This document shows, in pieces, positions 2,420 to 52,337 of a stretch of DNA of 64,000 bases (its first letter is position 1; the number at the start of each line of letters is the position of its first letter). The stretch spans positions 96,001-160,000 of the IMG/VR virus record IMGVR_UViG_3300045988_172839, one strand, 5' to 3'. The DNA comes from a virus. A program made the position numbers and the translations under genes. Under the pieces are notes generated by a model. It was not told the DNA's origin and did no database searches. It saw only the letters and a program-made list of their open reading frames with translations.

Positions 2420-5194
2420 TTAGTTCTCTTTGCGAGATTTGAAGCCTACAAAACCAACAAGCAAACCAAAGATACCGAGAGTAGCTAGGGCGCTAGAAGT
2501 CTCACCTGTGTTTGGAAGTTGACGTTGTTCAACAGTTGAGGTTTGTACAAGAGTTTCACCTTGTTCTGTAGCTGGTGTAGCAGAATACACAGTAGGAGCA
2601 ACATCTGATTGAACAACGAAACCTGATGTTGAAGTTGCAGTTGTTGTAGTTGAAGCTGAGTTTGAACTATTTGCAACAGTTACAGTAGCTTGAGGAACTT
2701 TGTAATCAACCACATGCCCGTTGTTGTCTACAACTGGTACTGGCTTGTAACCAGCTTTTTCAAGTTCTTTACGTTTAGCATCTGCAAGCTCTACTAAGCG
2801 TTTTGTTTCTGCTTCTTCAAACTTCGCTTTGGCAGTTTCGTAAACATTCTTCGCTTCAAGTGCTTTAGCACTTTTAACTTCAAAGTCTGCTTTGGCTTCA
2901 CGTTGTGCTTTTTGTGCAACTAGGAGAGCTTTCTCTGCTTGTTCAAGTTCAACTTTTAGATCCGCCAAACGAGTTTTCGCATTTTTAAGGTCTGCAAGCT
3001 CTTTTTCGGCTTGTTTAACTTTAGCTTGAGCATCTTTGAGTGCTTGTTCAGCTTCAGATACCGCTTTAGATTTAGCTTCTGCTGAAACTTTCATTAATCC
3101 CAACTTAGCTTGCTCAATTTCCAAAGCCTTATTTGCTTGCCCAAGGCTGAACTTAGCGATATTTGCACGACCACGAGCGCTTCTTGCTTCAATTTCTTTT
3201 TGAGCATGTGACACTAGCAAGTTGTTTACCAAGGCATTTGCATTAGCTAAATCAACAACTGCTTTGTCATGACGAGTTTTAGCACGCTCTAAGTAAGTTT
3301 GTGCTTTAGCAAGAGGACTACCTTCTTTTTTCAATGCGTTCAACTTAACAGTTGCACTACGCAAAGTTGAGTTAGCTTTTTCCAAGCCTTTGTCTGCTGC
3401 TTCAATTTGCTCACGGACAGCGCCTACTGCTTTTGCAGTATCTTTCAAACGTTGAACTGCATCAGCTACACGACGTTCAAAAACTTCTTTCTTCAAAGGA
3501 TTCTCAATAGGAGTTGTATCCCAAGTTGAGCCATTTGTAAGTGAGCTACGGACAGAAGTTAGAAAGTGCGTAGTGTAGAAATCGTCCGTTTTGCTCTGAG
3601 CAACCCCACCAAAGTAAGCAGTCTCATTTGGATAGTCAAATTGCAAAATCCCTTGAGTATGCGCATAGTCATTCTTAGTTGAAATCAACTGTACAAAATG
3701 ATTGTACAAGGTTTCTTTCATCTCGCCCAAAGTCTTACGGTAAACACCATCTTCATCATCAAAATCATGTGAAGCAAAGGTAGTCACAGAGTTTTCATAG
3801 TATTGTCCACCACGTGCTTCAACTTCTGAATCAGTAGTAGGCATGTTATACTCTTTGGCAACCTTGTTGATACCCTTAGCATAGTGTCCTGAACCACCTT
3901 TTTTACGGTATTCTTGTCGCATACTATTTGAATAGTTTACTTTCACATACTCGTCTGCAATCTTTTGAGCAAATTCCAATGAAGTTTTAGATAGAACTGC
4001 ATCTGGTAGTCCAAGTTGTTTACGAGCTTGATTTAGCAAGTCAGCTACAAAGTAGTTCAATTCATCACGAATTTCTTTAGGAAGATTGTTGATGTCATAG
4101 CGAGTAGTGTCTTCCAACTCGTTTTTCGTTTGAACATACTTGTTGTTAGCATTTGCAACTTGTGTACGAACAACTCGATTATACAACTCAGTTGTACGTT
4201 TGTTACGTTCCTCAGTAGACAAAGCACTGTTGTCAGCAAGGTTGTAAGCAATCGTATCTTTTACTGCTTGTACAAAGCTAGGGTCAAGAGTAATTTCTGG
4301 AAGATGTGTAGCACGGATTTTACTGTTGTAATCCCCTGCTTTATCATACTCATCATTCGCCTTCGCATAAGCAATCTGAGCATCAGCTTTCGTTTTATTC
4401 AAGTCTTCAATTTCTTTAGTTGAAGTAGCAATCTTAGATTCAGCATCTTTTACAGAATTTTGGTACTCTTGTTCTTTAGGTTTAGCTTCTTCAACACGTT
4501 TTTCGTTTGACTCTACTGAACTTTTAGCATCTTGTTCTTCAAAACGAGCATCAGTTTGAGCTTTACGGGCTTCTGGGAGCTTAGTATCGTTCAAGATAGC
4601 TTCTTTTTCAGCAGCTTCTTTTTCTGCCTTTTCCAAAGCACCTTTCGCTTCATCTACTTCAGCTTGTTTAGTAGCAACTGCTTTTTCTTGCGCAGCTACT
4701 TCGTCAGCAGAAACAATAGTTGCATTTTTAGCAGTGGATACCGCTTTTTCTGCTTGAGTAACTTCACCTTTTGCAGTTTCCACACTTTGTTCTGCTTGTT
4801 TAACTTGCTCTGTTGTAGGCAACTCTTTTTCAGCTTTTTCTACTTTTTCTTGTTTTTCTTTTACAGTAGACTCAGCACCTTTAACAGCATCATCTTTTTG
4901 CGCTACAGTTTCTTTTGCTTTATCTGCATCTTCTTGGGTTTGTTTAGCAGTAGCACCAAGTTCAGCGACTTCTTCCTTAGTAGGAGCTTTCACTTCTACT
5001 GGTTTTGGCGCTTCTTTCTCTACCAAAGCTGGTTCGTTTTTGGCATCTGTTGTAGGAACTTTCGGTTGATTTTGTTCTGTACGCAAACCACCTGCATTGT
5101 CAACAGTAGGATCAAAGATTGTGTCGGCATGTGCAACAGTGGTTGAAATACTTGCAGCGGCTAAAGCAGCAGTAGCGATAATAGATTTTTTCAT
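2420..5194 (-). CDS. LPXTG-anchored coiled-coil surface protein (SEC10/PrgA surface-exclusion-like)
   Basis: signal peptide MKKSIIATAALAAASISTTVAHA; long A/E/K-rich coiled-coil arms around a globular middle; C-terminal LPNTGE + hydrophobic helix + KSRKEN sorting signal. LPXTG call is firm; PrgA-like family assignment rests on architecture only. Confidence 0.6.
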   Translation of the reverse strand: MKKSIIATAALAAASISTTVAHADTIFDPTVDNAGGLRTEQNQPKVPTTDAKNEPALVEKEAPKPVEVKAPTKEEVAELGATAKQTQEDADKAKETVAQKDDAVKGAESTVKEKQEKVEKAEKELPTTEQVKQAEQSVETAKGEVTQAEKAVSTAKNATIVSADEVAAQEKAVATKQAEVDEAKGALEKAEKEAAEKEAILNDTKLPEARKAQTDARFEEQDAKSSVESNEKRVEEAKPKEQEYQNSVKDAESKIATSTKEIEDLNKTKADAQIAYAKANDEYDKAGDYNSKIRATHLPEITLDPSFVQAVKDTIAYNLADNSALSTEERNKRTTELYNRVVRTQVANANNKYVQTKNELEDTTRYDINNLPKEIRDELNYFVADLLNQARKQLGLPDAVLSKTSLEFAQKIADEYVKVNYSNSMRQEYRKKGGSGHYAKGINKVAKEYNMPTTDSEVEARGGQYYENSVTTFASHDFDDEDGVYRKTLGEMKETLYNHFVQLISTKNDYAHTQGILQFDYPNETAYFGGVAQSKTDDFYTTHFLTSVRSSLTNGSTWDTTPIENPLKKEVFERRVADAVQRLKDTAKAVGAVREQIEAADKGLEKANSTLRSATVKLNALKKEGSPLAKAQTYLERAKTRHDKAVVDLANANALVNNLLVSHAQKEIEARSARGRANIAKFSLGQANKALEIEQAKLGLMKVSAEAKSKAVSEAEQALKDAQAKVKQAEKELADLKNAKTRLADLKVELEQAEKALLVAQKAQREAKADFEVKSAKALEAKNVYETAKAKFEEAETKRLVELADAKRKELEKAGYKPVPVVDNNGHVVDYKVPQATVTVANSSNSASTTTTATSTSGFVVQSDVAPTVYSATPATEQGETLVQTSTVEQRQLPNTGETSSALATLGIFGLLVGFVGFKSRKEN

Positions 5195-5461: not shown

Positions 5462-8400
5462 TTATCTATCTTCTTTGCGCTTTCTTCCAAGGAAAGACAA
5501 ACCAAGTAAAGCAAGTAAACCATACCCACCTACTGAAAGTGCAGCCGTGTCTCCACCACCTGTATTTGGAAGTTGTGGAGTTTTTGGTGTTGGTTTAGTT
5601 GGTGTTGGTGGAACATCAGTGCGTGTCTTAACAGTATTTGAAGAAACTTCGATACCGTTAACAATGTGTGACACCTTGTTCTCAACCTCACCGGCTTGAA
5701 TACGAGTCATTTCAACAAAGACATCAGCTTGGAACTCAGAGTCTTTCGTGATTGAACGCAAGAACTCTTCTTTTAGACCAATTTCAAGCTGGCCTTTAGC
5801 TTTATCTTCTTTCAACCAAGCGTAAGTAGTTAAGTCATCGCCTGCTTTGAAGTGTTTACCATCAGCAGTTACAAAATCACGTTTTGCAATTACTTTATAC
5901 TTACCATCAAAACGGTCATGAGTTTCTTGGTAGTCATCTACAAACTTGTACTCGAACAAGTCATCCGCACGGTTACTTGGAATAAGTGTTCCTGTAAATG
6001 AATAGTAGAAGATTTGACCTAAAGTAATCTTTTGACCATCTTTAGACTCTTTATCTCCAATAGAAATCACAACATCTTTCTTAGTTTCAAACTTAGGAAT
6101 GTTGTTTACTACTGTTGTAGTCACCTCTGCAACTCCAAAGTCAATTTGATAAGCAGTATTTTCATACTTACCACCAGTTTTACCGAACTGTTCTTTGATT
6201 TTCATTGGATTAATAATGGTAATTGTGTCACCTGTTTGAACATACTTAGCGTAGAACTCTTCAGGATTTTCAGCTTCCCAAACTTGGAAGGCACCTTTAG
6301 GTTTAAATCCACGCTCAATTAAAGCATTACGAACTACTTCTGGTGCTTTTTCAATACTTTCATAAATAGTGTATTTCAAACCTTTCACTTCTTGACCTTT
6401 AGAGTCAGAAAGTTTAATACCATCAGAAAGTACATCTAACACATCTTCTGGATAATCATCAGCAATAAAGAAACCTTGTGCAATACGAGATTTGTCAGCT
6501 TGGATACCCTTGTATTGTGAGTAATCAGCAGTTACATGATAGTAGTTAGTTGATCCTGCAAATACTTGCTTACCATCAATGTTTACTCCAACCTTGTCGA
6601 AATTTGCTTTCTTAGGATTTGGTTTCACTACTTTGTTCACTACTGTTTCTGTTACCATTGCAAGACCAAAATCAAGTTGGTAAGCAGTATTCTTATACTC
6701 AGCTACTTTACCTAACATTTCTTTACGAACTGTCATAGGATTAGTAATTGTAAGAACCTCACCTGTCTTCACATACTTGTCGTAGAACTCAGTTGGGTTT
6801 TCAGCAGTTAAGACTTGAATAGCACCTTTAGGTGTATAACCTGCAGATTTAAGTGACTCTTGAACTCCTTTCGGAGCGTCTGCAAGTGTCTTGTAAACAG
6901 TTGACTTCAAACCAGTTACAAGGTTGCCTTTAGAATCTTTTACAACAATCTCATTCTCATTGACTGAAACTGCTTCTTCTGGGAAATCATCAACAATGTG
7001 GAAACCGTTCGCAATTCTGTTAGCGTCCGCTTCGATTCCTTTATAAGCACTATAATCAGCAGTTAATGTGTAATAGTTGACTGTTCCAGCTACTACTGGT
7101 TTACCATTAATACTTACACCGGCTTTATTCAAGTTCTTCTTGTGTGGGTTTGTTTTAGGTACACTATTTGAAACAGTTTCAGTTTCAGCAACCAAACCAA
7201 AATCAAGTTGATAAGCCGTATTTTGGTACTTAGCTCCCGTTTGATTTAACTTAGCAGAAACCGTCATAGGGTTTTTAACAGTCAACGTTTCCCCTGTTTT
7301 CACATACTTATTGTAATAAGCAACTGGATCAACCGCTTCAAAGACTTGAATAGCACCTTTAGGTTGAATATTTCTCTTAGCAAAGGCTTTTTGAACCTTT
7401 TCAGGAGCATCTGCTAAAGAGTTGTAGATAGTTTGTTTCAAACCTTCTACTTCATTACCTTTAGAATCAAGAACTTTCACATCTTTTTCATTGATAGATA
7501 CCACATCTTCTGGGAAATCATCTGCAATAAAGAAACCATTTTGAATTTTGTCTTCATCTGCTTCAATACTTTTGTATTGGTCATAACGAACAGTCAACTC
7601 ATAATAGTTAGTAGACCCTGCAAGAACTTGTTTACCATTGATGTTAACATGAGCAGCGTTAAAGTTTGCCTTATTAGGTTTAGGAGCTGGCACACTGTTT
7701 ACAACTGTCTCAGTCACTTTAGCAGAACCAAAGTCAAGTTGGTAAGCAGTATTTTCATACTTAGCACCTGTTTGGTTCAAGTGAGCTTTAACTGTCATTG
7801 GTACAGTAAGTGTAAGCACTTCACCTGCACGAACATACTTATTGTAAAACTCAGTACGATTTTCAAATTCAATAACTTGAATAGCACCTTTTGGTTGATA
7901 CCCTTGAAGTTTGAGAGCATCTTGCACCTCTTTAGGTGCATCTGCTACCGATTTATAAACCTTAGAAGTATAACCTTTTACTGCTTGACCTTTAGAGTCA
8001 ACTACCTTAATACCGTTAGTGTCAATATCTACTGCTTCTTCTGGATAATCATCCACAAAGTAGAAACCTTTCGCTACACGGTCTTTTTCAGCTTCAATTC
8101 CTTTATAATCAGAATAATCAGCAGTTAATGTGTAGTAGTTCGTAGAGCCTGCAAGAACTTGTTTACCGTTGATGTCAACACCTTTGGCATTCAAGTTTTT
8201 CTTATGTGGATCTGTTTTAGGTACACGATTTTCTACAATGTCAGCTTGGTAGCCATTACCAAAGTCTACTTGGTAAGCAGTATTTTGATATGATGCACCT
8301 TTACGGTCAAGTGACTGTTTCACCCTCATTGAGTCAACAATCGTTACAGAATTACCTTTAGAAACGTATTTATCAAAGAACTCTTGAGGGTTATCAGCCA

Positions 8401-11400
8401 TGAAGACTTGGAAAGCACCTTTAGGTTTGATACCACTAGTTTCAAGAATGGCTTTGATTTTAGGGTCTTTTACTTCTTCAATAGAGTTAAAGTGGTACTC
8501 AGTGATACCCTTAACTTCTGCACCGTTAGAATCGAATGCGCGAATTTCTCCACGCTCAATATCAAGCGCTTCTTCTGGGTAATCTTCTACAACACCAAAA
8601 CCTTTTTGAATAGCATCAGAACCACCCTTAATACCTTTGTACTTACTGTAGTCCATTGTTACATGGTAGTAATTCACTGAACCTGCAAGAACTTGTTTAC
8701 CATCAATTTTCACACCATCTTTATTGTAGTTTACTTTCACTGGTTTTGTTCCACCAGGTGTTGTAACTTCTACAATATTAGAATAAACTTCGTATTTGTT
8801 ATTCAAGTTCAAATGGAAGTTATTCTTATAAACAGCGTTATCATTTGTAACCTCTCCGTAAACCTTCAAAACTGGTACGTTGTAAGCAGTTGACAGATTT
8901 GCATTTATCTTATCGATACCACTCTTTTTCAGTACCCCTGTTAAACGGTGTGCTGACTCATCATAAGTAATAGTGTAGTCACTATTTTGAGCTTGAGTTT
9001 TAGCAAGGTTTAACTGATACCCTTGTGGTAAATTATCATGAATTTCGTAAACCTCAGTAACTTCGCGGTTTCTTGGAAGTGGTTTAGTTTCTAACTCCCA
9101 AACAACCTCAGACATCTTAGGTACATTGGATTTGTTGATGTTTGCTCCAAGATTGTTCTTAACATACTTCTCAACTTCTGGTGTTGTTTTCAACAAAGCA
9201 TAGCGAACATGAATAGTTCTAGGTGAAATCGGAGTTGGTACTGGTTTCTCCACTGGTTTCGGAGGAGCTGGAGGGAGAGGAACATGAGGTACATCTGGTG
9301 TCTCTGTAGGTAGAGGTTTCAATGGATTCTCTACTGGAGGTACAATAGGAGTTTTATCCTTCTCGTTGTACTTAGGTTCATTTGGTTTCTTCTCAGTAAA
9401 CTCACTTGGTTTAGGTGGCTCTTTAGGGAGAGGAACATGACCCACCTCAGTTGGTCTTTCAACTGGAGGTTTCTCCGGTGTAGGCACTGGTTTATTTAAA
9501 GTGTCTTTCTCTTTCTGTTTAAGCTCTGGAACTTCTGGTGGATTTGGAACCTCTGGTGGAACCAATTTCTTAACAACCGATTTTCCACCCCAAAGTTGGA
9601 AAGCGTACCCTGCTGCATAAAGTTCAAAATCTGTTTGAATCTTACGACCGTAGAACTTATCCTCATAGTCCGTAACTCGACGGTATTCTCTCGCTTGAGC
9701 TTCTGTGTAGGTCTGGGTACCACGAAGACCTTCAGCCAAATAGGTTAACTTATGAACAGCACCTTTACCTACAGTTAAAATTGTACCTTTAGGTGTATCA
9801 AAGAAGTCGTTCACGTCTGTATAATAAGGATCACCAGCTTTCCAACGTTTCAAACCAGTATCATCATCTGAAGTGTGAGTACCATCTGAGTGGATACCCA
9901 TCCAAACCTGTTTCCCTTTATAAGTAGTACGAGCCACTTCTGAACCTGGAGGGTTAATTACTGCACCTGTATCTTCATCAGTATTGTAAGTATGACGAAC
10001 AGCTTGAGTATAGTCCAAGTCTGCATAAATTGTAGTAGTACCTAAATTTAAAGGTCTACCCGTTGCTTCATCATAATAATGAATATCCCACTCATTATTC
10101 AAGTAGTTATATGGGTTAAAACCAATAGGAGAAATCGGGCCTTGACTACCATCTTTATACCACCAAACCCATAAACGAGTGTAAGTATCTTTATTACCTG
10201 GAATATCAAAACTCTTAGAAGGAGTTGTTCTTGACACTAATCGAGCAGAAATCGTTTTACCTGTCGTTGTACGACCTACATTATGCAAAGTGAAGGTCGA
10301 ACCTTGTTTGATACCGGTGATGATTTTTCCACCTAAACGCTCAGTGTTACCATACAAACCTTTTGCAACGTTAGGGTCTTCTTGAAGGTCTTTATCTAAA
10401 GTTAAAGTCGTCTTAGAATTAGCACCTAAAGCACCTTCAACTACTTCTAAACCTTTCTCTGGTGTGAAAACTGCAGTAACATCAGAGTAGTAATCCATAG
10501 AACCACGTTTAGACTCATTCAAAGTACCGTAAAGTGTTACCCCATTCCCTTGAGCTAAAATAGGTTTTTTCTTAACCTCATCAACTTCACGATTATAAGT
10601 TTTTAACTCTTCTTCATAAGTAGCTTTAGCTAACTTATAACGAGTCATAGCTGCATCATACTTATCTTGCTCTGCTTTGTTTTCTTTATCAATCTGAGCG
10701 TTTCGTTTATTTAACTCAGCTAATGCAGACTCATAAGCAGCTTGCGCAGTTGAGTTTGCTTTACGAATAGCTTCATTCTCTTTATTTCGAGCTTCCACTG
10801 CTTTCGTATAAGCATCTTTGTTCGCCTTGTTGGTTTTATCAATCTCAGCGTTCCGAGTATTCGCAACCTCTAAATCTTTACGATATTGCTCCAGCTTTTG
10901 ACGATAAGTAGTCATATCTGCGTCAGATTGAGTTTTACGCTCAGTCCATTTACCTAATTCAGACTCATAAGCTGACTTAGCGGCTGCATTGTCTTTGTCG
11001 ATTTGAGCATTTTTCGCAACTTGATCTGCTACTGCTTTTTCATAGCGAGATTTAGCAGCTTGATTATCTTTCTTGATTTGCTCATTTTCAGACTTAATAG
11101 CTTCTACCTTAGCTAAATGTTGCTCATGTTTTACTTGATTGTTTTTATCAATTTGAGCATTTTTATCATTAGCCGTTTTTAAATCTGTTTGATATTTCGC
11201 TTGAGCATCTTCATAGTCTTTCTTAGCTTTTGCATTTTCTTCTTTAACAATCTTAATTTCTTGGTTACGAGTTGCAACCTCTTCTTTAAAACGGTCAGCT
11301 TCTTTCTTCACAACTTCTGCTTGGTTGTCATAATTTTGCTCAATCTCTTTTTGGCGTTTCTCCAAATCAGAAGAACTTGTTGCAGTACCACCATCTGCTG

Positions 11401-11713
11401 GCGCATCAACAACAACATTCAAACCTGCAGCTTTCGCTTCGGATACCGCATTATCTACCTTGTTACGGTTGACGGTTACATCAAGTGTACCTTCTTTAGC
11501 TTTAGCGCTTTCTTGGCTTTCTAAAGCACTAGGAGTTGGTGCGTTTTGTACTTGTTTGGCATTTGTAGCATTATTTGTTACTTCATCCGCACTTACAGTA
11601 CCACTACTTAAAGCAGTACCCAAAGCTGCAAGACCGAGAATAACACCACAAGCACCATAATGTTTCACTTTACGGATACTTCCGTATGTTTTTGTTTCTG
11701 CACTTCTGCTCAT
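5462..11713 (-). CDS. antigen I/II-family LPXTG adhesin (2083 aa)
   Basis: YSIRK-type signal (YGSIRKVKHYGACGV), Ala-rich repeat region, central variable domain, Pro-rich region (PPEVPNPPEVPELK...), five ~177-aa tandem C-terminal repeats, LPNTGG sorting signal with RKRKEDR tail. Confidence 0.85.
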   Translation of the reverse strand: MSRSAETKTYGSIRKVKHYGACGVILGLAALGTALSSGTVSADEVTNNATNAKQVQNAPTPSALESQESAKAKEGTLDVTVNRNKVDNAVSEAKAAGLNVVVDAPADGGTATSSSDLEKRQKEIEQNYDNQAEVVKKEADRFKEEVATRNQEIKIVKEENAKAKKDYEDAQAKYQTDLKTANDKNAQIDKNNQVKHEQHLAKVEAIKSENEQIKKDNQAAKSRYEKAVADQVAKNAQIDKDNAAAKSAYESELGKWTERKTQSDADMTTYRQKLEQYRKDLEVANTRNAEIDKTNKANKDAYTKAVEARNKENEAIRKANSTAQAAYESALAELNKRNAQIDKENKAEQDKYDAAMTRYKLAKATYEEELKTYNREVDEVKKKPILAQGNGVTLYGTLNESKRGSMDYYSDVTAVFTPEKGLEVVEGALGANSKTTLTLDKDLQEDPNVAKGLYGNTERLGGKIITGIKQGSTFTLHNVGRTTTGKTISARLVSRTTPSKSFDIPGNKDTYTRLWVWWYKDGSQGPISPIGFNPYNYLNNEWDIHYYDEATGRPLNLGTTTIYADLDYTQAVRHTYNTDEDTGAVINPPGSEVARTTYKGKQVWMGIHSDGTHTSDDDTGLKRWKAGDPYYTDVNDFFDTPKGTILTVGKGAVHKLTYLAEGLRGTQTYTEAQAREYRRVTDYEDKFYGRKIQTDFELYAAGYAFQLWGGKSVVKKLVPPEVPNPPEVPELKQKEKDTLNKPVPTPEKPPVERPTEVGHVPLPKEPPKPSEFTEKKPNEPKYNEKDKTPIVPPVENPLKPLPTETPDVPHVPLPPAPPKPVEKPVPTPISPRTIHVRYALLKTTPEVEKYVKNNLGANINKSNVPKMSEVVWELETKPLPRNREVTEVYEIHDNLPQGYQLNLAKTQAQNSDYTITYDESAHRLTGVLKKSGIDKINANLSTAYNVPVLKVYGEVTNDNAVYKNNFHLNLNNKYEVYSNIVEVTTPGGTKPVKVNYNKDGVKIDGKQVLAGSVNYYHVTMDYSKYKGIKGGSDAIQKGFGVVEDYPEEALDIERGEIRAFDSNGAEVKGITEYHFNSIEEVKDPKIKAILETSGIKPKGAFQVFMADNPQEFFDKYVSKGNSVTIVDSMRVKQSLDRKGASYQNTAYQVDFGNGYQADIVENRVPKTDPHKKNLNAKGVDINGKQVLAGSTNYYTLTADYSDYKGIEAEKDRVAKGFYFVDDYPEEAVDIDTNGIKVVDSKGQAVKGYTSKVYKSVADAPKEVQDALKLQGYQPKGAIQVIEFENRTEFYNKYVRAGEVLTLTVPMTVKAHLNQTGAKYENTAYQLDFGSAKVTETVVNSVPAPKPNKANFNAAHVNINGKQVLAGSTNYYELTVRYDQYKSIEADEDKIQNGFFIADDFPEDVVSINEKDVKVLDSKGNEVEGLKQTIYNSLADAPEKVQKAFAKRNIQPKGAIQVFEAVDPVAYYNKYVKTGETLTVKNPMTVSAKLNQTGAKYQNTAYQLDFGLVAETETVSNSVPKTNPHKKNLNKAGVSINGKPVVAGTVNYYTLTADYSAYKGIEADANRIANGFHIVDDFPEEAVSVNENEIVVKDSKGNLVTGLKSTVYKTLADAPKGVQESLKSAGYTPKGAIQVLTAENPTEFYDKYVKTGEVLTITNPMTVRKEMLGKVAEYKNTAYQLDFGLAMVTETVVNKVVKPNPKKANFDKVGVNIDGKQVFAGSTNYYHVTADYSQYKGIQADKSRIAQGFFIADDYPEDVLDVLSDGIKLSDSKGQEVKGLKYTIYESIEKAPEVVRNALIERGFKPKGAFQVWEAENPEEFYAKYVQTGDTITIINPMKIKEQFGKTGGKYENTAYQIDFGVAEVTTTVVNNIPKFETKKDVVISIGDKESKDGQKITLGQIFYYSFTGTLIPSNRADDLFEYKFVDDYQETHDRFDGKYKVIAKRDFVTADGKHFKAGDDLTTYAWLKEDKAKGQLEIGLKEEFLRSITKDSEFQADVFVEMTRIQAGEVENKVSHIVNGIEVSSNTVKTRTDVPPTPTKPTPKTPQLPNTGGGDTAALSVGGYGLLALLGLSFLGRKRKEDR
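6070..8740 (-). repeat. five tandem ~531-bp coding repeats (C-terminal domains of the adhesin)
   Basis: protein units each start N(L/F)N..GV.I(N/D)GKQVLAGS(T/V)NYY..T.DYS.YKGI; the DNA landmark (g)tttaccat(c/t)(a/g)at recurs near 6600, 7130, 7660, 8190, 8720. Confidence 0.8.
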
Positions 11714-19980: not shown

Positions 19981-22900
19981 TTATAAACCAACCATATAAT
20001 CGCTATCTTCCATAGCTTCAACTTGACCGAGAAGATACCCATTCCCAACTTGCGAGAAGAAATCATGGTTGGAAGTACCCGTTGAAATACCATTCATAAT
20101 GATAGGGTTAACATCATCTGCTGAATCTGGGAAGAGTGGATCTTGTCCTAGGTTCATAAGAGCCTTATTGGCATTGTAACGAAGGAAAGTCTTCACTTCT
20201 TCTGTCCAACCAATTTCATCATATAACTCTTCTGTGTACCTCTCCTCATTTTCATACAGAGTGTAGAGCAAGTCGTACATCCACGCTTTTAATTCTTCTT
20301 GTTCTTCCTCAGATAGCTCATTAAAAGCGAGTTGGAACTTATAGCCAATATAAGTACCGTGAACACTATTTCCAGTTATAACTACAGAGCCACTTTGACT
20401 ACGAGTTACCAAATACCCTGAAGGAACTTGGATACCGTAAATCTGCTCACCTTCAAGCTCAGTTCGTGTCACCGCAGCACCATAACTAGTGGAACCATTA
20501 GGTAAAATAGTTAAAGAATAATTAACAAGACCCTCTGCACTAAATGGTGAACGATCTTCAAACTCTCTAATACGAGTTTTATAACCAATTAAACTACACA
20601 AGGCTTGCACATAATCTATACTCTCTTTATTTATAGAGCAATATCTATAAGAGTTATCACTACATTTAGCACCTACCCAATCAAACAGTGTTTCCAAATA
20701 TTGTAAGCACCATTTAAAGTCTACTTCATTCAAAGGGCGTTTAGGTAAAGACTTCAACTTACTCTCTTCGATACCGAATTGGTTAAATTTAGAAATACGG
20801 AGTACAGTTCCATTTCCTTCGGGATAAGAATATTCCTTGTAAGTTATATCTAAAGACTCCAACAAATCTTTCATCTTTGCAATAATCTCTGGTTTACTAC
20901 TGCTCAATACCAGATGTTTACTTAAAGCACTTTCTACTACCGTTCCAAATTTAGACAAACAAATATATAAATCTTCCCATTTAGATAAAGGTTCTACCTT
21001 AGAGTTTGGAGATAAAACCTCAGTAGGATGCAACCAATAAGAGCTACTACCTAAAGTTAAATCCGCTGGCCGAGTAATCAATTTATCACTAGTCAAAGCT
21101 TTACGAATAAGTCTGTGATTAGGTGTACATTTTAAATCAACATAACCAAGTTTAGACTTAAACTGATAAATCTTAGGTGCAAAATCCGTTGAAATCGTAG
21201 AAACTGGTGCAAAATTCGTTCTGCGAGTTTCTTTATCAAACTGCAAGACCAAGTCTTGTGGGCGAATATCGGCTACGGATACCCAACCTTTAGGTGTTAG
21301 CACCTCTTGGTCTTTTGTCATGCACTCATCTCGAATAATAAGCTTAATAATCTCAGCCACATTAGGGAGTTTGTTGTTTCCTAAGTACCATAAAGGTGTA
21401 AAGAAACCAGAGTAGAAAAGGAAAGACTCTAGGAAGACACTTGCTACTTTCTTTTGAAGTGGGGTTCCATTGTCATAAACCTCTTTGATAATCTCTGCTT
21501 TCTTCTGCAAATATGGGTTGTTGGCAGTCCACTCAAAAATTTCTTCAATCTCAGACTTGGTGTTCAATGTGGAGAATATTGAGGAGTAGGACTTGGCGTG
21601 GACACAGTTGCCTGAGATAATAGTTTTTCGACCTGCAGATACCACTAGAAACTGCGAGGGAACTTCAACACCATAGACTTCTTCACCTTCCAGTTTCTCA
21701 AACGATAAACTTTGAAGTTGGACATCACGTTGATTTTCAGATGATAAAATACGAACATAGTAATTATCACTATACTTTTCAGATCTATCATCTATGTTTA
21801 CACCTGAGTTATGAGTATAACCTGCTAAAGTGCTAAGAACTTTAACAAAATTCGCGTTTTCAATTTCTTTTGTATAATAAGAAATATAACCTCTTGAACC
21901 ATCTTCATTATAGTGAACATGAGAGTCCCATAAAGAAAGCTCTTCAATAAATTGCTGTGCTTTCTCTGCATTGAAATCAGAAAAAGAGAACCAATTATTT
22001 AACACTTTAGGTTTTAAGTTCAAAGAACCTAACATTGTAAAAGGTACAAATACATTAAAGTTCCTTTGTGGTTTACATTTACCTGAACCTAGTTTACCGT
22101 TAATTTCCTTATAAGATATACCCGAATCTTCGCATAACTTTAATAATTTTGCTATCTTGGGCTCTTTAGAAAAACTAAACCGAATAGTAAAAGTTTCAGT
22201 TTTTAAACGAGGATCCTTATCTCGATATTGTTGAATCCGTTTAATTTCCCTCTCAGTAATAGACCCATCTGCTTGGAAAGCAATCAATAACTTCTCAAAA
22301 GGAGTTAAAAGGGAAACTGAAGTTTGTGTAACAAAAGGTCTCACTAAAGGTACGCGTCGATAAGCAGTTTTAGGAAGTTTCACAAAATCCTCAGCAGTTA
22401 CAACTCCGTATTTATAAGACTTCCATGCATCTAATGGAGAACCGGATTTTAAAGAAGTCTCTTCAAAAAGCATGCGGTGTCCGGGAGATACCCTTAAATC
22501 TACTGCTGAATTATATATCCGCTCAATATGAGGTGCTTTGTGTTTAGATGTTTTTATAACCTTTTCAAACCTTGTAGTTTCTGTCTTTGGGTCATAAGCC
22601 AAAATAGTATCACCTTCAACAATATCCGCAATCGGAACCCAACCTCTATCAATCGTTAGAAGTTTATGGTCTTTCGTATAGCACTCCATAAACTCAATAT
22701 TGTTTAACACTGCTTCTTCATGCTGTGTACGAACATCTGGTTTAATTGCGGATACCCCGTCAACCGACTGCAACGTATCTAACAAGGTCAACCCACCAAA
22801 GACTTTAACTACTAAATCTCTTTCTTTTTCAGGCAACTTGCGCCAATCATCTAAATCATTAGACAAAGGAATACGAGTATCTAACCAAAATTGTTCAGTT

Positions 22901-23013
22901 AGTTTTTCCCAAGTTGCTTTATCAACTACGTCCTCAATGGCGTTCCAATTTATCGCCTTGTAAAAATCTGGTTCTTGTGTCAAATCCTTCTCACTTTCTA
23001 ATCGTAATCTCAT
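19981..23013 (-). CDS. nrdF: ribonucleotide reductase beta subunit (NrdF/R2) interrupted by two inteins
   Basis: exteins read ...KAINWNAIED..WLDTRIPLSND..GGLTLLDTLQ..NNIEFME | CVHAKSYSSIF...IIRDE | SVHGTYIGYKF...NHDFFSQVGNGY; both di-iron ExxH motifs are present once the inteins are removed; mature length about 332 aa. Confidence 0.85.
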   Translation of the reverse strand: MRLRLESEKDLTQEPDFYKAINWNAIEDVVDKATWEKLTEQFWLDTRIPLSNDLDDWRKLPEKERDLVVKVFGGLTLLDTLQSVDGVSAIKPDVRTQHEEAVLNNIEFMECYTKDHKLLTIDRGWVPIADIVEGDTILAYDPKTETTRFEKVIKTSKHKAPHIERIYNSAVDLRVSPGHRMLFEETSLKSGSPLDAWKSYKYGVVTAEDFVKLPKTAYRRVPLVRPFVTQTSVSLLTPFEKLLIAFQADGSITEREIKRIQQYRDKDPRLKTETFTIRFSFSKEPKIAKLLKLCEDSGISYKEINGKLGSGKCKPQRNFNVFVPFTMLGSLNLKPKVLNNWFSFSDFNAEKAQQFIEELSLWDSHVHYNEDGSRGYISYYTKEIENANFVKVLSTLAGYTHNSGVNIDDRSEKYSDNYYVRILSSENQRDVQLQSLSFEKLEGEEVYGVEVPSQFLVVSAGRKTIISGNCVHAKSYSSIFSTLNTKSEIEEIFEWTANNPYLQKKAEIIKEVYDNGTPLQKKVASVFLESFLFYSGFFTPLWYLGNNKLPNVAEIIKLIIRDECMTKDQEVLTPKGWVSVADIRPQDLVLQFDKETRRTNFAPVSTISTDFAPKIYQFKSKLGYVDLKCTPNHRLIRKALTSDKLITRPADLTLGSSSYWLHPTEVLSPNSKVEPLSKWEDLYICLSKFGTVVESALSKHLVLSSSKPEIIAKMKDLLESLDITYKEYSYPEGNGTVLRISKFNQFGIEESKLKSLPKRPLNEVDFKWCLQYLETLFDWVGAKCSDNSYRYCSINKESIDYVQALCSLIGYKTRIREFEDRSPFSAEGLVNYSLTILPNGSTSYGAAVTRTELEGEQIYGIQVPSGYLVTRSQSGSVVITGNSVHGTYIGYKFQLAFNELSEEEQEELKAWMYDLLYTLYENEERYTEELYDEIGWTEEVKTFLRYNANKALMNLGQDPLFPDSADDVNPIIMNGISTGTSNHDFFSQVGNGYLLGQVEAMEDSDYMVGL
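20368..21324 (-). mobile_element. intein 2 in nrdF (319 aa)
   Basis: starts CMTKDQEVLTPKGWVSVADI, ends ...TRSQSGSVVITGN, followed by the +1 Ser of SVHGTY; its termini resemble those of intein 1. Confidence 0.8.
21607..22683 (-). mobile_element. intein 1 in nrdF (359 aa, LAGLIDADG-type middle)
   Basis: starts CYTKDHKLLTIDRGWVPIADI, contains LLIAFQADGS, ends ...VVSAGRKTIISGN, followed by the +1 Cys of CVHAKSY. Confidence 0.8.
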
Positions 23014-23320
23014 TTGTAAAATCGTTTTGCAAAACTCGGAAATGAACCTCAGTTATTGCACCACTCTGATGAAGATTGTATAGATTAAAATGCACATACC
23101 GTAAAAAGTAGACTTCATCTTTGGTTAAGAATAGGTCATTTAAGTAGTGAAATTCTAACCAATTTAAAGTCTTTTCAATCTCAGCACATCTAAAACTTTT
23201 CAATTTAGTAAGAGGTGTCTTTAATTCTGTATCAAAGGCATATAAAAATGATAAAGCTAAAGACTCACTTGTGATTGGTATAGAGGAAACATCAAAAGAA
23301 ACAATAAGTTGCTTAATCAT
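22991..23320 (-). CDS. hypothetical protein (109 aa)
   Basis: ATG ORF with AAAGGT RBS. Confidence 0.6.
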   Translation of the reverse strand: MIKQLIVSFDVSSIPITSESLALSFLYAFDTELKTPLTKLKSFRCAEIEKTLNWLEFHYLNDLFLTKDEVYFLRYVHFNLYNLHQSGAITEVHFRVLQNDFTNEITIRK

Positions 23321-23325
23321 GCTAA

Positions 23326-24015
23326 CTACCTTTCTAACTCAATTACAAAGTCAGTTGAAGTTGAACCGAACCAACCGTAGACAGTTCTCTTACCTCTAAT
23401 ATCGCCTATTTTACCTATTGAGTCAGAACCATAATAGATAGTAAAGGGTTTAAACGCTTTAAGTGAACCTTTACGGTATTCTTTTGAACCGCTGCGAACC
23501 TCAGTAGTTAAACTATCAAAGTCTGGTCCTTTCCATCTAAGGTCTTCAGATTTTACTAAAACAATGAACGACTTGGTATCACCTAATAGTGGATCAGAAA
23601 GTTCCTTAGTCACACTACTATACGGAAAATCTTCAATCCGTTCATGATAATCTACGAGAACATGTTTATCAAAATTAAGAGTCTGATATAGGGAACTGAG
23701 AGCAATAATACTCATAAAAAGAAATACAAATTTATTCAACTTTACTAAATTGGAACCGAAATTTGAAGTAAATCCTATATACATTAAAACTAAAGCAAGT
23801 AAAACTACCCCTACAAAATAAAATGTAGCGTAAGACCCAAAAAATACATAAGGAACCATCAAAGGTAAAGATACCGCAAGTGTTATTAAACCTAAATAAA
23901 CCCATTTGTTAGAACTCTCTTTAAGTTGAGACCACAAATACTTTAAATCTTTAGGTTTTTCAGCAATTAGAACCGTGTCTACATGTTCAGTTGTTTCAAT
24001 CATTTTATCGCTCAT
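23326..24015 (-). CDS. membrane protein (229 aa)
   Basis: about four hydrophobic helices in residues 35-115 (WVYLGLITLAVSLPLMVPYVFFGSYATFYFVGVVLLALVLMYIGF...), soluble C-terminal half. Confidence 0.65.
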   Translation of the reverse strand: MSDKMIETTEHVDTVLIAEKPKDLKYLWSQLKESSNKWVYLGLITLAVSLPLMVPYVFFGSYATFYFVGVVLLALVLMYIGFTSNFGSNLVKLNKFVFLFMSIIALSSLYQTLNFDKHVLVDYHERIEDFPYSSVTKELSDPLLGDTKSFIVLVKSEDLRWKGPDFDSLTTEVRSGSKEYRKGSLKAFKPFTIYYGSDSIGKIGDIRGKRTVYGWFGSTSTDFVIELER

Positions 24016-49888: not shown

Positions 49889-52114
49889 TTAATCTTCTAA
49901 AGATTCATAAATTCGTTTAAATAAGACTTCCAAACAAGGAACTGCAATCGAGTTACCTGCTTGTTTGTATAACTGCAAATCTGATAAACCTGTCTCTTTT
50001 GCTTTTTGGTAGTCTTCGTAAGAGAACCCCATAAACTTCCAACACTCGCCGGGAGTCAGATACCGCATAGAATAAAAACCACTTAAAGGTTTCTGCTCTT
50101 CTGTCTGATTATCAGACAACATCAAAGCCAAATTGAACAATCCTTGAGGTTTGTTTACAATTTTCTCAGACAACCATAATACGTTTGGGTCTTTTGCAAG
50201 TTCTTCTCGTGTTGAAGAAAGACCACGCTCATATTCTACAAATGGACGAGCTAGAGGGTCACTTGCATCTGAAGGGTACAACTTAGACGGAACTTCACAA
50301 CCTACACCCTCTACAACTGTTTTAGGGTACTTATAGTCAGAAGCCAACATGCAGCTTACTTTCCCTGTCGGAAAAAGGCACTGAGTTCGCATTCCAATCG
50401 ACTCTTTAATGGTTGAAAGGTCTATGTCTTCTAAACCTTGTTCTTTCAATTTGTCGATTTTGTAATCAACTGGAACGTTAAAACGACCGAGGTAATGCAC
50501 GATACCCTTATCTCTTAACTCATAAGTAAAGCGGTCAATGTTATACTGCTTGTGCCACTTCTTTGTATCTAATTCACTACCTAACAAGGGAACCATAGTT
50601 GAACCATTATCAAATCCATTTGGAAAACGATACGGTTTATGTTTCCCTAAAATAGAGACTACGAAAATACGCTCTCTATTTTGAGGGAGTCCAAAGTCTT
50701 TTGCATTAAGGACTCCATAGTAGTTTGTATAACCTAAACCTCTCAAAAAGGAGAGCCAAGAGTGAAACCCATCTCGAAACTTAGCACTGTTTAGAGCCTT
50801 TACATTTTCTAATAACAAAACCTTTGGTTTCTTACCCTCAATCAATCGCTGACACTCCCATAAAAGAGAAGACGAAGTTCCTGAACCCTTTTCAAATCCA
50901 CGTTGTTTTCCTGCAGAACTTAAATCCGTACAGTTGTGTACAATACAGTTCTAAACAGTAAATGAATGATTATCTTTGACACTAATATCATAAACACTAG
51001 CTTTGTATGGAGTGTAACTAGCCGACTCTACGGATACCCAAACATAATCATCCTCAAAAATCATAGAGTTTGATTTAGTTTCCAAGTCACTAAACTCGAT
51101 ACGATAGTGTTCGTTGATAGACTCGCTAATTGTAAACGGTACTTTGTAAGCTTTCAACACTAACTGACTTATACCGTAGAACAATTCTTTACCTGTAACA
51201 AATAAAGTAGAGGTAAAATCTACGGTTTGTCCTGAGACCCTCTGGTAGCCCCATAGAAGCGCTCGAATTTGTTGTAAGGGTAAATCTACCCACTGAGATT
51301 GAAAATGCAATCTGTGCCGTTTTAAGGCGCTCTCACGCAAATAATTTACAAGAGCGCAATTTCGGATACGGAACTCAAGCTGTGAGTTACCTAGTTCTAA
51401 ACTTGAAGTATCAAACAACCCCTCAGTTAAGTCTCTTAATAAGTGATAATGTTTATTATCTACTTTCAAAATCAATTCTTCGCCCTTTACCATGAAAGGA
51501 TAAACAAGTAAGACACCTAATAAGCGCCAAAAATCTAAGTTCTCAAAATGGCTCTCTAGTGATGGATACCCTTGTGGGAGTTTAGACTCTGAGTTAATTG
51601 GAAACCCTAAGTAATCTGAGGTACTTAGCTCCCTCGCTTCTTTCCATTGTGGAGAGTTTAAACCCTCTTCAGATTTACTACGCACATAAAAGGGATGGTT
51701 TTCTGTGGTTGAAATATCTCTCGTAAGTTCTGAACTTACTGAAAATAAAGGCTTTAAACCTTGGTTATAAAAAGCAGTAACCTCTTTATATTCACCTGTG
51801 TGAGTTAAAACCGAGTCACCTACAACCACATTCTTAATAGGAACGTAACCTTTGTCTTTTACAAAGACTAAAGAATCTCCTGTGAAACAAGGGAAAGAGT
51901 AAGTAAACAAATCAAAATCTGGTAAATCCTCTGGCCACAACTTTGAAATGTCTCCAAAGTTAGGAGTTTCCCCATGAATAGCTTCATAAGCCTGATGGGC
52001 GAATTTGTCAATTTCGGATACACCGACTACTTCGTAATCAACACTTAAATTTCTCAGAGCCATGTGTTGAGAACCAACTCCTGCAAAGGCTTCGAACACT
52101 TTTAAATGTACCAT
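49889..52114 (-). pseudogene. DNA (cytosine-5) methyltransferase with an intein at the catalytic Cys and an in-frame TAG inside the intein
   Basis: N-extein MVHLKVFEAFAGVGSQ (motif I)...FTYSFP; intein CFTGDSLVFV...SVKDNHSFTV-TAG-NCIVHN; C-extein CTDLSSAGKQRGFEKGSGTSSSLLWE...LLLENVKAL...PQNRERIFVV...YKQAGNSIAVP. The two track ORFs 50951..52174 and 49889..50845 are in the same frame. Confidence 0.8.
50933..51889 (-). mobile_element. intein (318 codons plus one TAG) in the C5 methyltransferase
   Basis: Cys codon 51887-51889 starts CFTGDSLVFVKDKGYVPIKNV; the HN dipeptide ends at 50933-50935; +1 Cys codon at 50930-50932; TAG at 50951-50953. Confidence 0.75.
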
Positions 52115-52118
52115 ATTG

Positions 52119-52337
52119 TTAGCTAATCTCCTTTGTGAACATACCGCGAACTCCATCAAATCGACTGCCGACATTAGGGTATACTGCTACCAAGATTGTG
52201 TTTTCCTTCAATTCATCACTCGGAAACCCTTTATCTTGTAATCTGTTATAAGTACCAAAGGACACTCGATCTACTACCGTAAAGTCGAAACCTTTCTCTT
52301 CACCCTCCATTGGAGAGAAAATTAGTGTATATTTCAA
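52119..52337 (-). CDS. hypothetical protein (72 aa)
   Basis: ATG ORF; its last codons carry the AAGGAG RBS for the methyltransferase start at 52114. Confidence 0.55.
   Translation of the reverse strand: MKYTLIFSPMEGEEKGFDFTVVDRVSFGTYNRLQDKGFPSDELKENTILVAVYPNVGSRFDGVRGMFTKEIS

Follow-up and report, generated by a model that had tools for sequence, protein, structure and literature searches.

How does one gene come to hold two related inteins at both of its metal-ligand motifs, and can such a gene still work? The question is raised by nrdF, which encodes the beta subunit of a class Ib ribonucleotide reductase (RNR), in a 64,000-nucleotide stretch of viral DNA (positions 96,001 to 160,000 of IMG/VR virus record IMGVR_UViG_3300045988_172839), below called the window. 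We consider it likely that this is an intact, Streptococcus-type class Ib nrdF on an oral element of about 238 kb, colonised by two lineages of one intein family whose arrivals were most likely independent and occurred by homing.

The interrupted gene and its two inteins

The nrdF precursor is a minus-strand open reading frame (ORF) of 1010 uninterrupted codons at 19981-23013 (Table 1). A preliminary description of the window had placed two inteins in this ORF, at 21607-22683 and 20368-21324, and these coordinates are exact: in silico excision of residues 111-469 and 564-882 restores a full NrdF of 332 residues. The spliced protein is 86% identical to the NrdF of Streptococcus sanguinis (PDB 4N83, E 1e-185). 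It covers the Pfam family Ribonuc_red_sm from position 1 to 281 of 281 (E 6e-94), and the match of the unspliced ORF to the same family is split into three pieces.

When aligned to Corynebacterium ammoniagenes R2F, the window protein has its residues at D77, E108, H111, E168, E202 and H205, which we take to be the metal ligand set of the C. ammoniagenes R2F structure. Intein 1 lies between the equivalents of E108 and H111 (ExxH 1) and intein 2 between those of E202 and H205 (ExxH 2). The ferritin-like fold of R2 proteins has an internal pseudo-twofold that relates its two ExxH helices, and the alignment bears out the earlier claim that each insert separates the Glu from the xVH of one of two pseudo-symmetric motifs. 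These had been called iron-ligand motifs; they are metal-ligand motifs, but not strictly for iron, the ligands in class Ib NrdF being Mn/Fe ligands. The D, ExxH, E, ExxH ligand set and the radical Tyr are all retained in the spliced NrdF, and the sole change in the mature protein would be a Ser to Cys replacement after the first ligand Glu. The splice junctions, here and below marked by slashes, are NNIEFME/C...ISGN/CVHAKSY at site 1 and LIIRDE/C...ITGN/SVHGTY at site 2, for which the predicted junction peptides of the spliced protein are NNIEFMECVHAK and LIIRDESVHGTY.

A BLASTP alignment of the two inteins spans both entirely, with 27% identity (E 8e-24, 87 bits), a likeness beyond chance. 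The resemblance reported in the preliminary description is therefore one of homology, but not a private relationship of the two, since the end motifs on which it was based occur family-wide. The residue set of class 1 inteins is present in both (C111, S176..H179, N469 and C470 in intein 1; C564, T630..H633, N882 and S883 in intein 2). The penultimate His (G:6), a common but non-defining intein trait, is replaced by Gly in both. A class 3 mechanism, which goes with the lack of an N-terminal nucleophile and a Cys at F:4 (a WCT or MCT triplet), was ruled out for the window inteins by their Cys1 and F:4 Gly, and because of this combination they must take the class 1 route.

Pfam gave weak LAGLIDADG_3 and Hint matches. 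Intein 2 was modelled with AlphaFold2 from a 16-sequence alignment, and the model (mean predicted local distance difference test score 89.6) has a HINT domain and a LAGLIDADG fold. In Foldseek the model matches the endonuclease-bearing inteins TliVMA, PhoVMA, PI-PfuI and PI-SceI, with E values between 1e-17 and 1e-10. The middle domain resembles I-DmoI, and the splicing domain resembles the AceL NrdHF intein (PDB 6ZGQ; target TM-score 0.73). PI-SceI, PI-PfuI, TliVMA and PhoVMA share the HINT plus LAGLIDADG architecture of intein 2 but are only 10-13% identical to it and end in His-Asn, and intein 2 lacks both catalytic acids. The fold of intein 1 was assigned by homology, which points to a HINT fold here as well.

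The endonuclease domains of the two inteins differ in state. Intein 1 has two LAGLIDADG helices, each with a catalytic acid in the conserved Asp columns of the family (FQADGS and LWDSH), and is probably a still-mobile homing element. Intein 2, like its closest relatives, retains the fold, and its endonuclease is probably inactive because the catalytic positions are occupied by Phe and Val. It would probably be an immobile passenger that must still splice.

Table 1. Positions of the nrdF precursor, its exteins and inteins, and of the adhesin genes in the window
Feature	Position	Strand	Description
nrdF precursor ORF	19981..23013	-	1010 aa + stop; class Ib RNR beta subunit split by two inteins
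N-extein	22684..23013	-	aa 1-110; end NNIEFME; Asp ligand in LLDTLQ (22768-22785)
Intein 1	21607..22683	-	359 aa, aa 111-469; at ExxH motif 1; Cys1; end ISGN; +1 = Cys470
Intein 1, blocks			B: VSPGHRM (His179, Arg180); F: VYGVEVPS (F:4 Gly)
Intein 1, LAGLIDADG motif 1	22261..22290	-	LLIAFQADGS; catalytic Asp retained
Intein 1, LAGLIDADG motif 2	21919..21951	-	FIEELSLWDSH; catalytic Asp retained
Middle extein	21325..21606	-	aa 470-563; CVHAKSY start (His ligand, radical Tyr), FLESF (Glu ligand), LIIRDE end
Intein 2	20368..21324	-	319 aa, aa 564-882; at ExxH motif 2; Cys1; end ITGN; +1 = Ser883
Intein 2, blocks			B: CTPNHRL (His633, Arg634); F: IYGIQVPS (F:4 Gly)
Intein 2, degenerate LAGLIDADG helix 1	20941..20970	-	LYICLSKFGT; Phe at catalytic Asp position
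Intein 2, degenerate LAGLIDADG helix 2	20668..20700	-	YLETLFDWVGA; Val at catalytic Asp position
C-extein	19981..20367	-	aa 883-1010 + stop; SVHGTY start (His ligand); C-terminal tail EAMEDSDYMVGL
LPXTG AgI/II adhesins	5462-11713; 2420-5194

The annotated start of nrdF (23013) gives a 23-nt overlap with an upstream ORF of 109 residues (22991-23320), and about 15 N-terminal residues extend beyond S. sanguinis NrdF. This extension is also found in L003 and P0041 (labels of the form L0xx denote related loci or contigs, and P00xx related proteins, retrieved for comparison). The true start may lie further downstream, or the extension may be real, given its conservation in these two relatives.

The intein family and its sites

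Both inteins belong to a large family. An exhaustive search with a profile of the intein 2 lineage returned 2,521 cluster representatives at a cut-off of E<=1e-3. Word-indexed searches (19 and 3 matches, the window's own protein being missed) had wrongly suggested that such inteins are rare, and the exhaustive search corrected this. The best 150 profile matches and earlier matches together formed the family sample of about 190 proteins and 209 complete inteins that underlies the comparisons below. R2 proteins account for 107 of these roughly 190 hosts, with 49 family inteins at ExxH 1 and 48 at ExxH 2 (inserted as E/xxH or Ex/xH). At least ten of the sampled R2 proteins have more than one family intein (two or three), and both ExxH motifs are occupied in at least six (e.g., P0041, P0042, P0044, P0045, P0049 and P0050). 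No description of such double occupancy of the R2 motifs was found in the literature searched; each insertion site individually has precedent. The other hosts include nicotinamide phosphoribosyltransferase (at RPD/SGD), helicases, DNA polymerase A and ThyX.

The close relatives of intein 1 are all located in NrdF at FME/C..GN/CVHAKSY, with slightly more distant ones in RuvB-like ATPases, and the relatives of intein 2 are found at RDE/SVHG. Among sequenced phages the family occurs in the R2 genes of Pectobacterium, Tenacibaculum, Vibrio and Pseudanabaena phages, and among sequenced genomes it is largely phage-borne. A 2025 preprint names RNR beta among the intein hosts of actinobacteriophages. 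Two metagenomic R2 proteins, P0046 and P0054, have two family inteins that are two extein residues apart (..GE/intein/SE/intein/[SC]RHSEAY), and P0046 has a third one at the second ExxH motif.

The preliminary description correctly noted the Gly-Asn ends of both window inteins and regarded them as unusual. Within the family they are neither unusual nor a sign of decay: Gly occupies position G:6 in 193 of 195 members, Asn being the final residue. A His-Arg pair in block B, H179-R180 and H633-R634 in the window, is invariant in a 10-sequence family alignment. This pair, the (S/T)-G-N end, the Y-x-x-x-V-P-(S/G) pattern in block F and the profile match place both inteins in a family resembling the AceL NrdHF intein, of which the Gly-Asn end is best taken as a signature and not as an anomaly of the window nrdF. 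Gly-Asn as a mark of a degenerate intein was rejected on its family-wide occurrence and on the biochemistry of AceL.

The family profile matches AceL NrdHF-1-1 (PDB 6ZGQ) with an E value of 5e-14, and AceL occupies site 2. Its host gene, located on a metagenomic contig of phage-like character, encodes a class Ib RNR beta subunit (Hoffmann et al. 2020, PMC7891396). High-yield splicing takes place within minutes despite the Gly145-Asn146 end and without the C2:13 and C1:6 His residues, and a G145H replacement abolishes activity. The lack of a penultimate His is made up for in part by Arg69, at block B position 11 beside the block-B His, which is hydrogen-bonded to the scissile carbonyl (PMC7891396). 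Like intein 2, AceL is inserted at the second ExxH site, with flanks D-2, E-1, M+2 and H+3, and it ends in Thr-Gly-Asn. Its block B (SPNHRM) resembles that of intein 1 (SPGHRM), with the compensating Arg in both, and the VP(G/S) kink motif in block F is alike. However, AceL is a naturally split mini-intein of 146 residues with a separate GIY-YIG endonuclease gene and belongs to class 3 (Ala1, F:4 Cys), whereas the window inteins are contiguous, contain an internal LAGLIDADG-fold domain and combine Cys1 with F:4 Gly.

In view of the above, a pathway for maturation of the window NrdF can be proposed. Translation would give the 1010-residue precursor, in which neither E-x-x-H is contiguous, so that the dimetal-tyrosyl cofactor could not form. 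Each intein would then excise itself by the class 1 pathway, starting with a thioester at Cys1, after which the +1 residue, Cys at site 1 and Ser at site 2, would take over the N-extein. Cyclisation of the terminal Asn would be aided by the block-B arginines, Arg180 and Arg634, in place of the penultimate His, as in AceL. Splicing would restore E-C-V-H and E-S-V-H in the 332-residue NrdF, which would need NrdE and NrdI of the host as partners. We infer that both window inteins would be competent to splice, and likewise the endonuclease activity and the partnership with host NrdE and NrdI.

The best match of intein 1 among sequenced phages is found in gp74 of Corynebacterium phage Darwin (NC_042086; 30% identity, E 5e-31), annotated as 'ribonucleotide reductase + intein'. 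The host protein is again NrdF, and its family intein occupies site 1 as intein 1 does (NISFME/AFSGD...ISGN/CVHARSY), with a +1 Cys, a Gly-Asn end and intact LAGLIDADG motifs. This protein differs in having Ala1 and F:4 Cys (class 3-like) and in carrying a single intein, site 2 being empty. The phage genome also differs from the window by an RNR large-subunit gene close upstream of nrdF. Among NrdF-resident inteins, the Ala1 members (P0042, P0080 and Darwin gp74) keep F:4 Cys and the Cys1 members have F:4 Gly, which suggests that class 1 and class 3 mechanisms may have switched within one NrdF intein lineage.

Origin of the pair and condition of the gene

The relation between the two inteins was examined by ranking the sampled family inteins against each other with BLASTP. 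Intein 2 is 81st of 196 among the matches of intein 1, and intein 1 is 61st among the approximately 196 matches of intein 2; for each of them, at least 60 representatives from other sites or proteins are closer than its partner. The best non-orthologous matches come from the same site, namely the NrdF site-1 inteins P0026 and P0134 for intein 1 and the NrdF site-2 intein P0043 (142 bits) for intein 2. A bootstrapped neighbour-joining tree places intein 1 among NrdF site-1 inteins only, in a ten-member clade with a bootstrap value of 96. The branch that unites intein 2 with its orthologues has a value of 100; another site-2 lineage of NrdF, seen in L003 and P0043, joins this branch with a weak value of 22. 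The nearest neighbour is a same-site intein for 82 of the 97 R2 inteins, against 23 +/- 5 expected by chance. By these comparisons the two window inteins are separate site-specific lineages of one large family.

A deeper connection between the two sites can be considered. The site-1 and site-2 lineages of NrdF could descend from one NrdF-resident ancestor that long ago jumped between the sites via a common DNA core, the two lineages being reunited later in the window nrdF. We give this possibility appreciable but not preferential credence. It would account for the residues that NrdF inteins of both sites have in common: Ser at B:7 in 15/15 site-1 and 8/9 site-2 inteins, where the rest of the family has mostly Thr, and Gly at F:4 in 13/14 site-1 and 6/8 site-2 inteins, where the rest has mostly Cys. 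All NrdF inteins of both sites also fall in one 26-member clade of the tree, nine of the 97 R2 inteins have their nearest neighbour at the other site, and two within-protein pairs are close to each other (P0050, reciprocal best matches; P0044, ranks 7 and 8). However, the bootstrap value of the 26-member clade is only 20%, and the B:7 Ser and F:4 Gly residues also occur in some site-2 inteins outside NrdF, so that a similar pattern could result from convergence or from a shared composition of the hosts. Those of P0050 are mini-inteins, and their pairing may be an effect of length.

The DNA of the insertion sites was compared as well, as the preliminary description had proposed. Of 13 nucleotides, 11 form a common core (GAG/TGTGTCCACG versus GAG/AGTGTTCACG); the likeness is confined to the insertion point and the bases just 3' of it, and nothing is common to the 5' sides. 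Judged by the first 45 residues alone, no group other than its own orthologues is nearer to intein 1 than the intein 2 lineage (rank 11 of 200). Both likenesses would fit a deep link between the two lineages.

The gene persists in an intact form. Seven human oral metagenome contigs of about 238 kb, drawn from two or more independent data sources, encode an identical NrdF precursor. P0041 is another intact allele with both inteins; its exteins are 93-97% identical to those of the window, its intein 1 76% and its intein 2 59%. In comparison with L007, intein 1 has a ratio of nonsynonymous to synonymous substitution rates (dN/dS) of 0.20 and intein 2 one of 0.28, and for the exteins, in comparison with L003, the ratio is 0.037; the dS of the C-extein versus L007 is saturated and hence unusable. 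Such values indicate purifying selection on the window nrdF and its inteins. The dS values are mosaic, with 0.09 in the middle extein versus 0.73-1.25 in the inteins, and within the inteins 0.22 in the N-terminal part of intein 1 versus more than 1 in its remainder and in intein 2. This is the expected pattern if intein segments are exchanged by recombination or homing.

Related loci show other states of the same gene. In L003 nrdF (7312-9321) site 1 is empty and reads FME/QVHAKSY: the ligand Glu is followed by Gln and not by Ser or Cys, which would leave an intein at this point with no +1 nucleophile. Site 2 of this gene holds a different, more canonical intein lineage with intact LAGLIDADG motifs. 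The intein-less DNA is TTTATGGAACAAGTCCATGC for site 1 in L003 and AGAGATGAAAGTGTCCATGG for site 2 in L005. The nrdF locus is thus in flux, as would be expected under a homing cycle, and the window holds one of its intact states.

Free-standing ORFs of the intein 2 lineage were also observed, at 6001-7011 in L003 and 644-1570 in L010, in positions syntenic with the window ORF at 23326-24015. They are 47-51% identical to intein 2 (MEC MTKAQ...VVITGG), have lost the terminal Asn and stand in place of most of the second gene upstream of nrdF. Site 2 is unoccupied in the neighbouring nrdF of L010. These ORFs may be escaped or decaying inteins, or free-standing endonuclease-like genes. The 'ME' that precedes them in L003 and L010 was considered as a relic of the FME of site 1, but it is indistinguishable from a chance start codon and was not used.

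Several observations weigh against an intact gene that was colonised independently at its two sites. The F:4 Gly of both window inteins contrasts with the Cys of the family majority, and the family members that have been tested lack F:4 Gly. The deep nodes of the neighbour-joining tree are poorly supported, and the sample behind the ranks and the tree is biased, as it consists largely of the top 150 matches to an intein 2 profile. The middle domain of intein 2 has a dN/dS near 0.19 even though it lacks the catalytic Asp, and dS is saturated there. The nrdF of L007-L009 (about 8001-10799) lacks some 95 N-terminal codons and has a TGA within the LIIRDE motif, as LII(stop)DE; that of L006 (1-2217) lacks the N-terminal part and intein 1. 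With such decay in sister elements, nrdF may be dispensable. The Pfam families of NrdE, NrdI and NrdH were not found in the window ORFs of at least 90 residues, and tblastn with NrdE and NrdH of Enterococcus phage MDA2 gave nothing in the window or the fetched relatives (best E 0.46 and 0.88). The earlier statement that nrdE and nrdI are not adjacent to nrdF in the window is borne out by these searches.

Some of these observations could be read as those of a dead or dying gene, an orphan nrdF on its way to a pseudogene, in which splicing has been lost by one intein or by both, for example due to the penultimate Gly and the F:4 Gly, and which yields no active enzyme. Truncated or stop-containing copies in related elements, the failure to find nrdE and nrdI nearby, the lost catalytic residues of the intein 2 endonuclease and the much faster divergence of the inteins than of the exteins would fit. 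We nevertheless regard this as unlikely. The window gene has 1010 open codons, and its protein is identical on 7 contigs; neither intein has lost Cys1, the His-Arg of block B, the terminal Asn or the +1 nucleophile; dN/dS is 0.2-0.28 in the inteins and 0.037 in the exteins; all metal ligands and the radical Tyr are retained; and a Gly-Asn intein of the same family, AceL, splices efficiently.

The inteins could also act as a conditional switch that ties maturation of RNR beta to the redox or metal state, for example via the cysteines at positions 1 and +1 of site 1. Other proteins do harbour redox-sensitive inteins, and there is circumstantial support in the position of both inserts at cofactor ligands and in the combination of Cys1 with Cys+1 at NrdF site 1 in 15/15 cases. 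However, homing elements generally insert at conserved catalytic motifs, so that an adaptive explanation is unnecessary, and related elements tolerate empty sites. We consider such a switch quite improbable.

Hardly credible is the recent intragenic duplication put forward in the preliminary description, in which one intein homed ectopically to the symmetry-related ExxH site and the two are direct copies: the full-length homology, the common core of the target sites and the rank of the N-terminal block of intein 1 are in its favour, but at just 27% identity, with at least 60 to 80 representatives closer than the partner, with each intein clustering with same-site inteins of other genes and with end motifs that are common to the whole family, the same-site clades and the 82/97 same-site neighbours do not support it, and the mutual ranks largely refute it.

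Genomic setting and significance

Independent colonisation of an intact gene, the reading that we prefer, should be viewed against the element that carries it. The contigs L001 and L002 are 238 kb and L004 and L005 about 468 kb long; full contigs are recorded as ERZ989710 k127_74389 and JGI Ga0557493_021747. The window genes are all on one strand, with a GC content of about 35%, and include a 2083-residue LPXTG adhesin of the AgI/II type, several orphan DNA methylases, DHFR, RNase H and a 5'-3' exonuclease; relatives carry sortase, SecA, SecY, SecG and DnaG. An nrdHIEF-type operon context is absent within the window and the fetched flanks of related elements. Megablast found no counterpart of nrdF among phage genomes and none of a 24-kb part of the window among plasmids, and as far as these comparisons go the element is without a close sequenced relative. 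The 'Inocle' giant extrachromosomal elements of oral Streptococcus (PMC12340149) resemble it in oral origin, size, a Streptococcus-like NrdF and LPXTG plus sortase genes.

A different intein was noticed elsewhere in the window. The C5 cytosine DNA methylase gene at 49889-52174 (minus strand) is split at catalytic motif IV (..TYSFP/C...) by an intein with a canonical His-Asn end (CFTGDSLV...NCIVHN/CTDLSSAGK). One in-frame stop (50951-50953) lies 7 codons before the end of this intein and could be due to a pseudogene, read-through or a sequencing error.

RNR genes with several mobile elements are known from the RIR1 alleles of Pyrococcus and Trichodesmium and from bnrdE/bnrdF of SPbeta, which have introns and an intein. 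Those cases concern the alpha subunit or nrdF introns, whereas in the window two related inteins are found at pseudo-symmetric motifs of the beta subunit. The group I intron of Bacillus cereus nrdF, presumably inserted near nt 579, may be close to site 2. In general, RNR genes are hot spots for multiple homing elements at conserved catalytic motifs (PMC3653736; PMC4760082).

The window nrdF is accordingly a tidy new example of known, widespread and expected biology, that of an RNR gene colonised by homing inteins. What was not found described in the papers searched is one intein family that systematically targets both R2 metal motifs, often together; in the sampled sequences this pattern is real, and it is modestly interesting. 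A practical warning follows, in that a Gly-Asn terminus is not to be taken as the mark of a defective intein. The locus could serve as a test bed for three questions: whether a LAGLIDADG intein endonuclease can cut a paralogous site, how Gly-Asn inteins with F:4 Gly catalyse Asn cyclisation, and whether the orphan nrdF of a giant element associated with oral Streptococcus yields an active enzyme with the NrdE and NrdI of the host.

We tentatively suggest that the pseudo-twofold of R2 gives this family two paralogous homing sites with a GAR-NGT-GTY-CAY-G core, and that its lineages may have jumped between the ExxH motifs more than once, also within nrdF. If so, site jumping would explain the recurrence of related inteins at both metal sites of one gene, and the symmetry of a protein fold would steer the spread of a selfish element.

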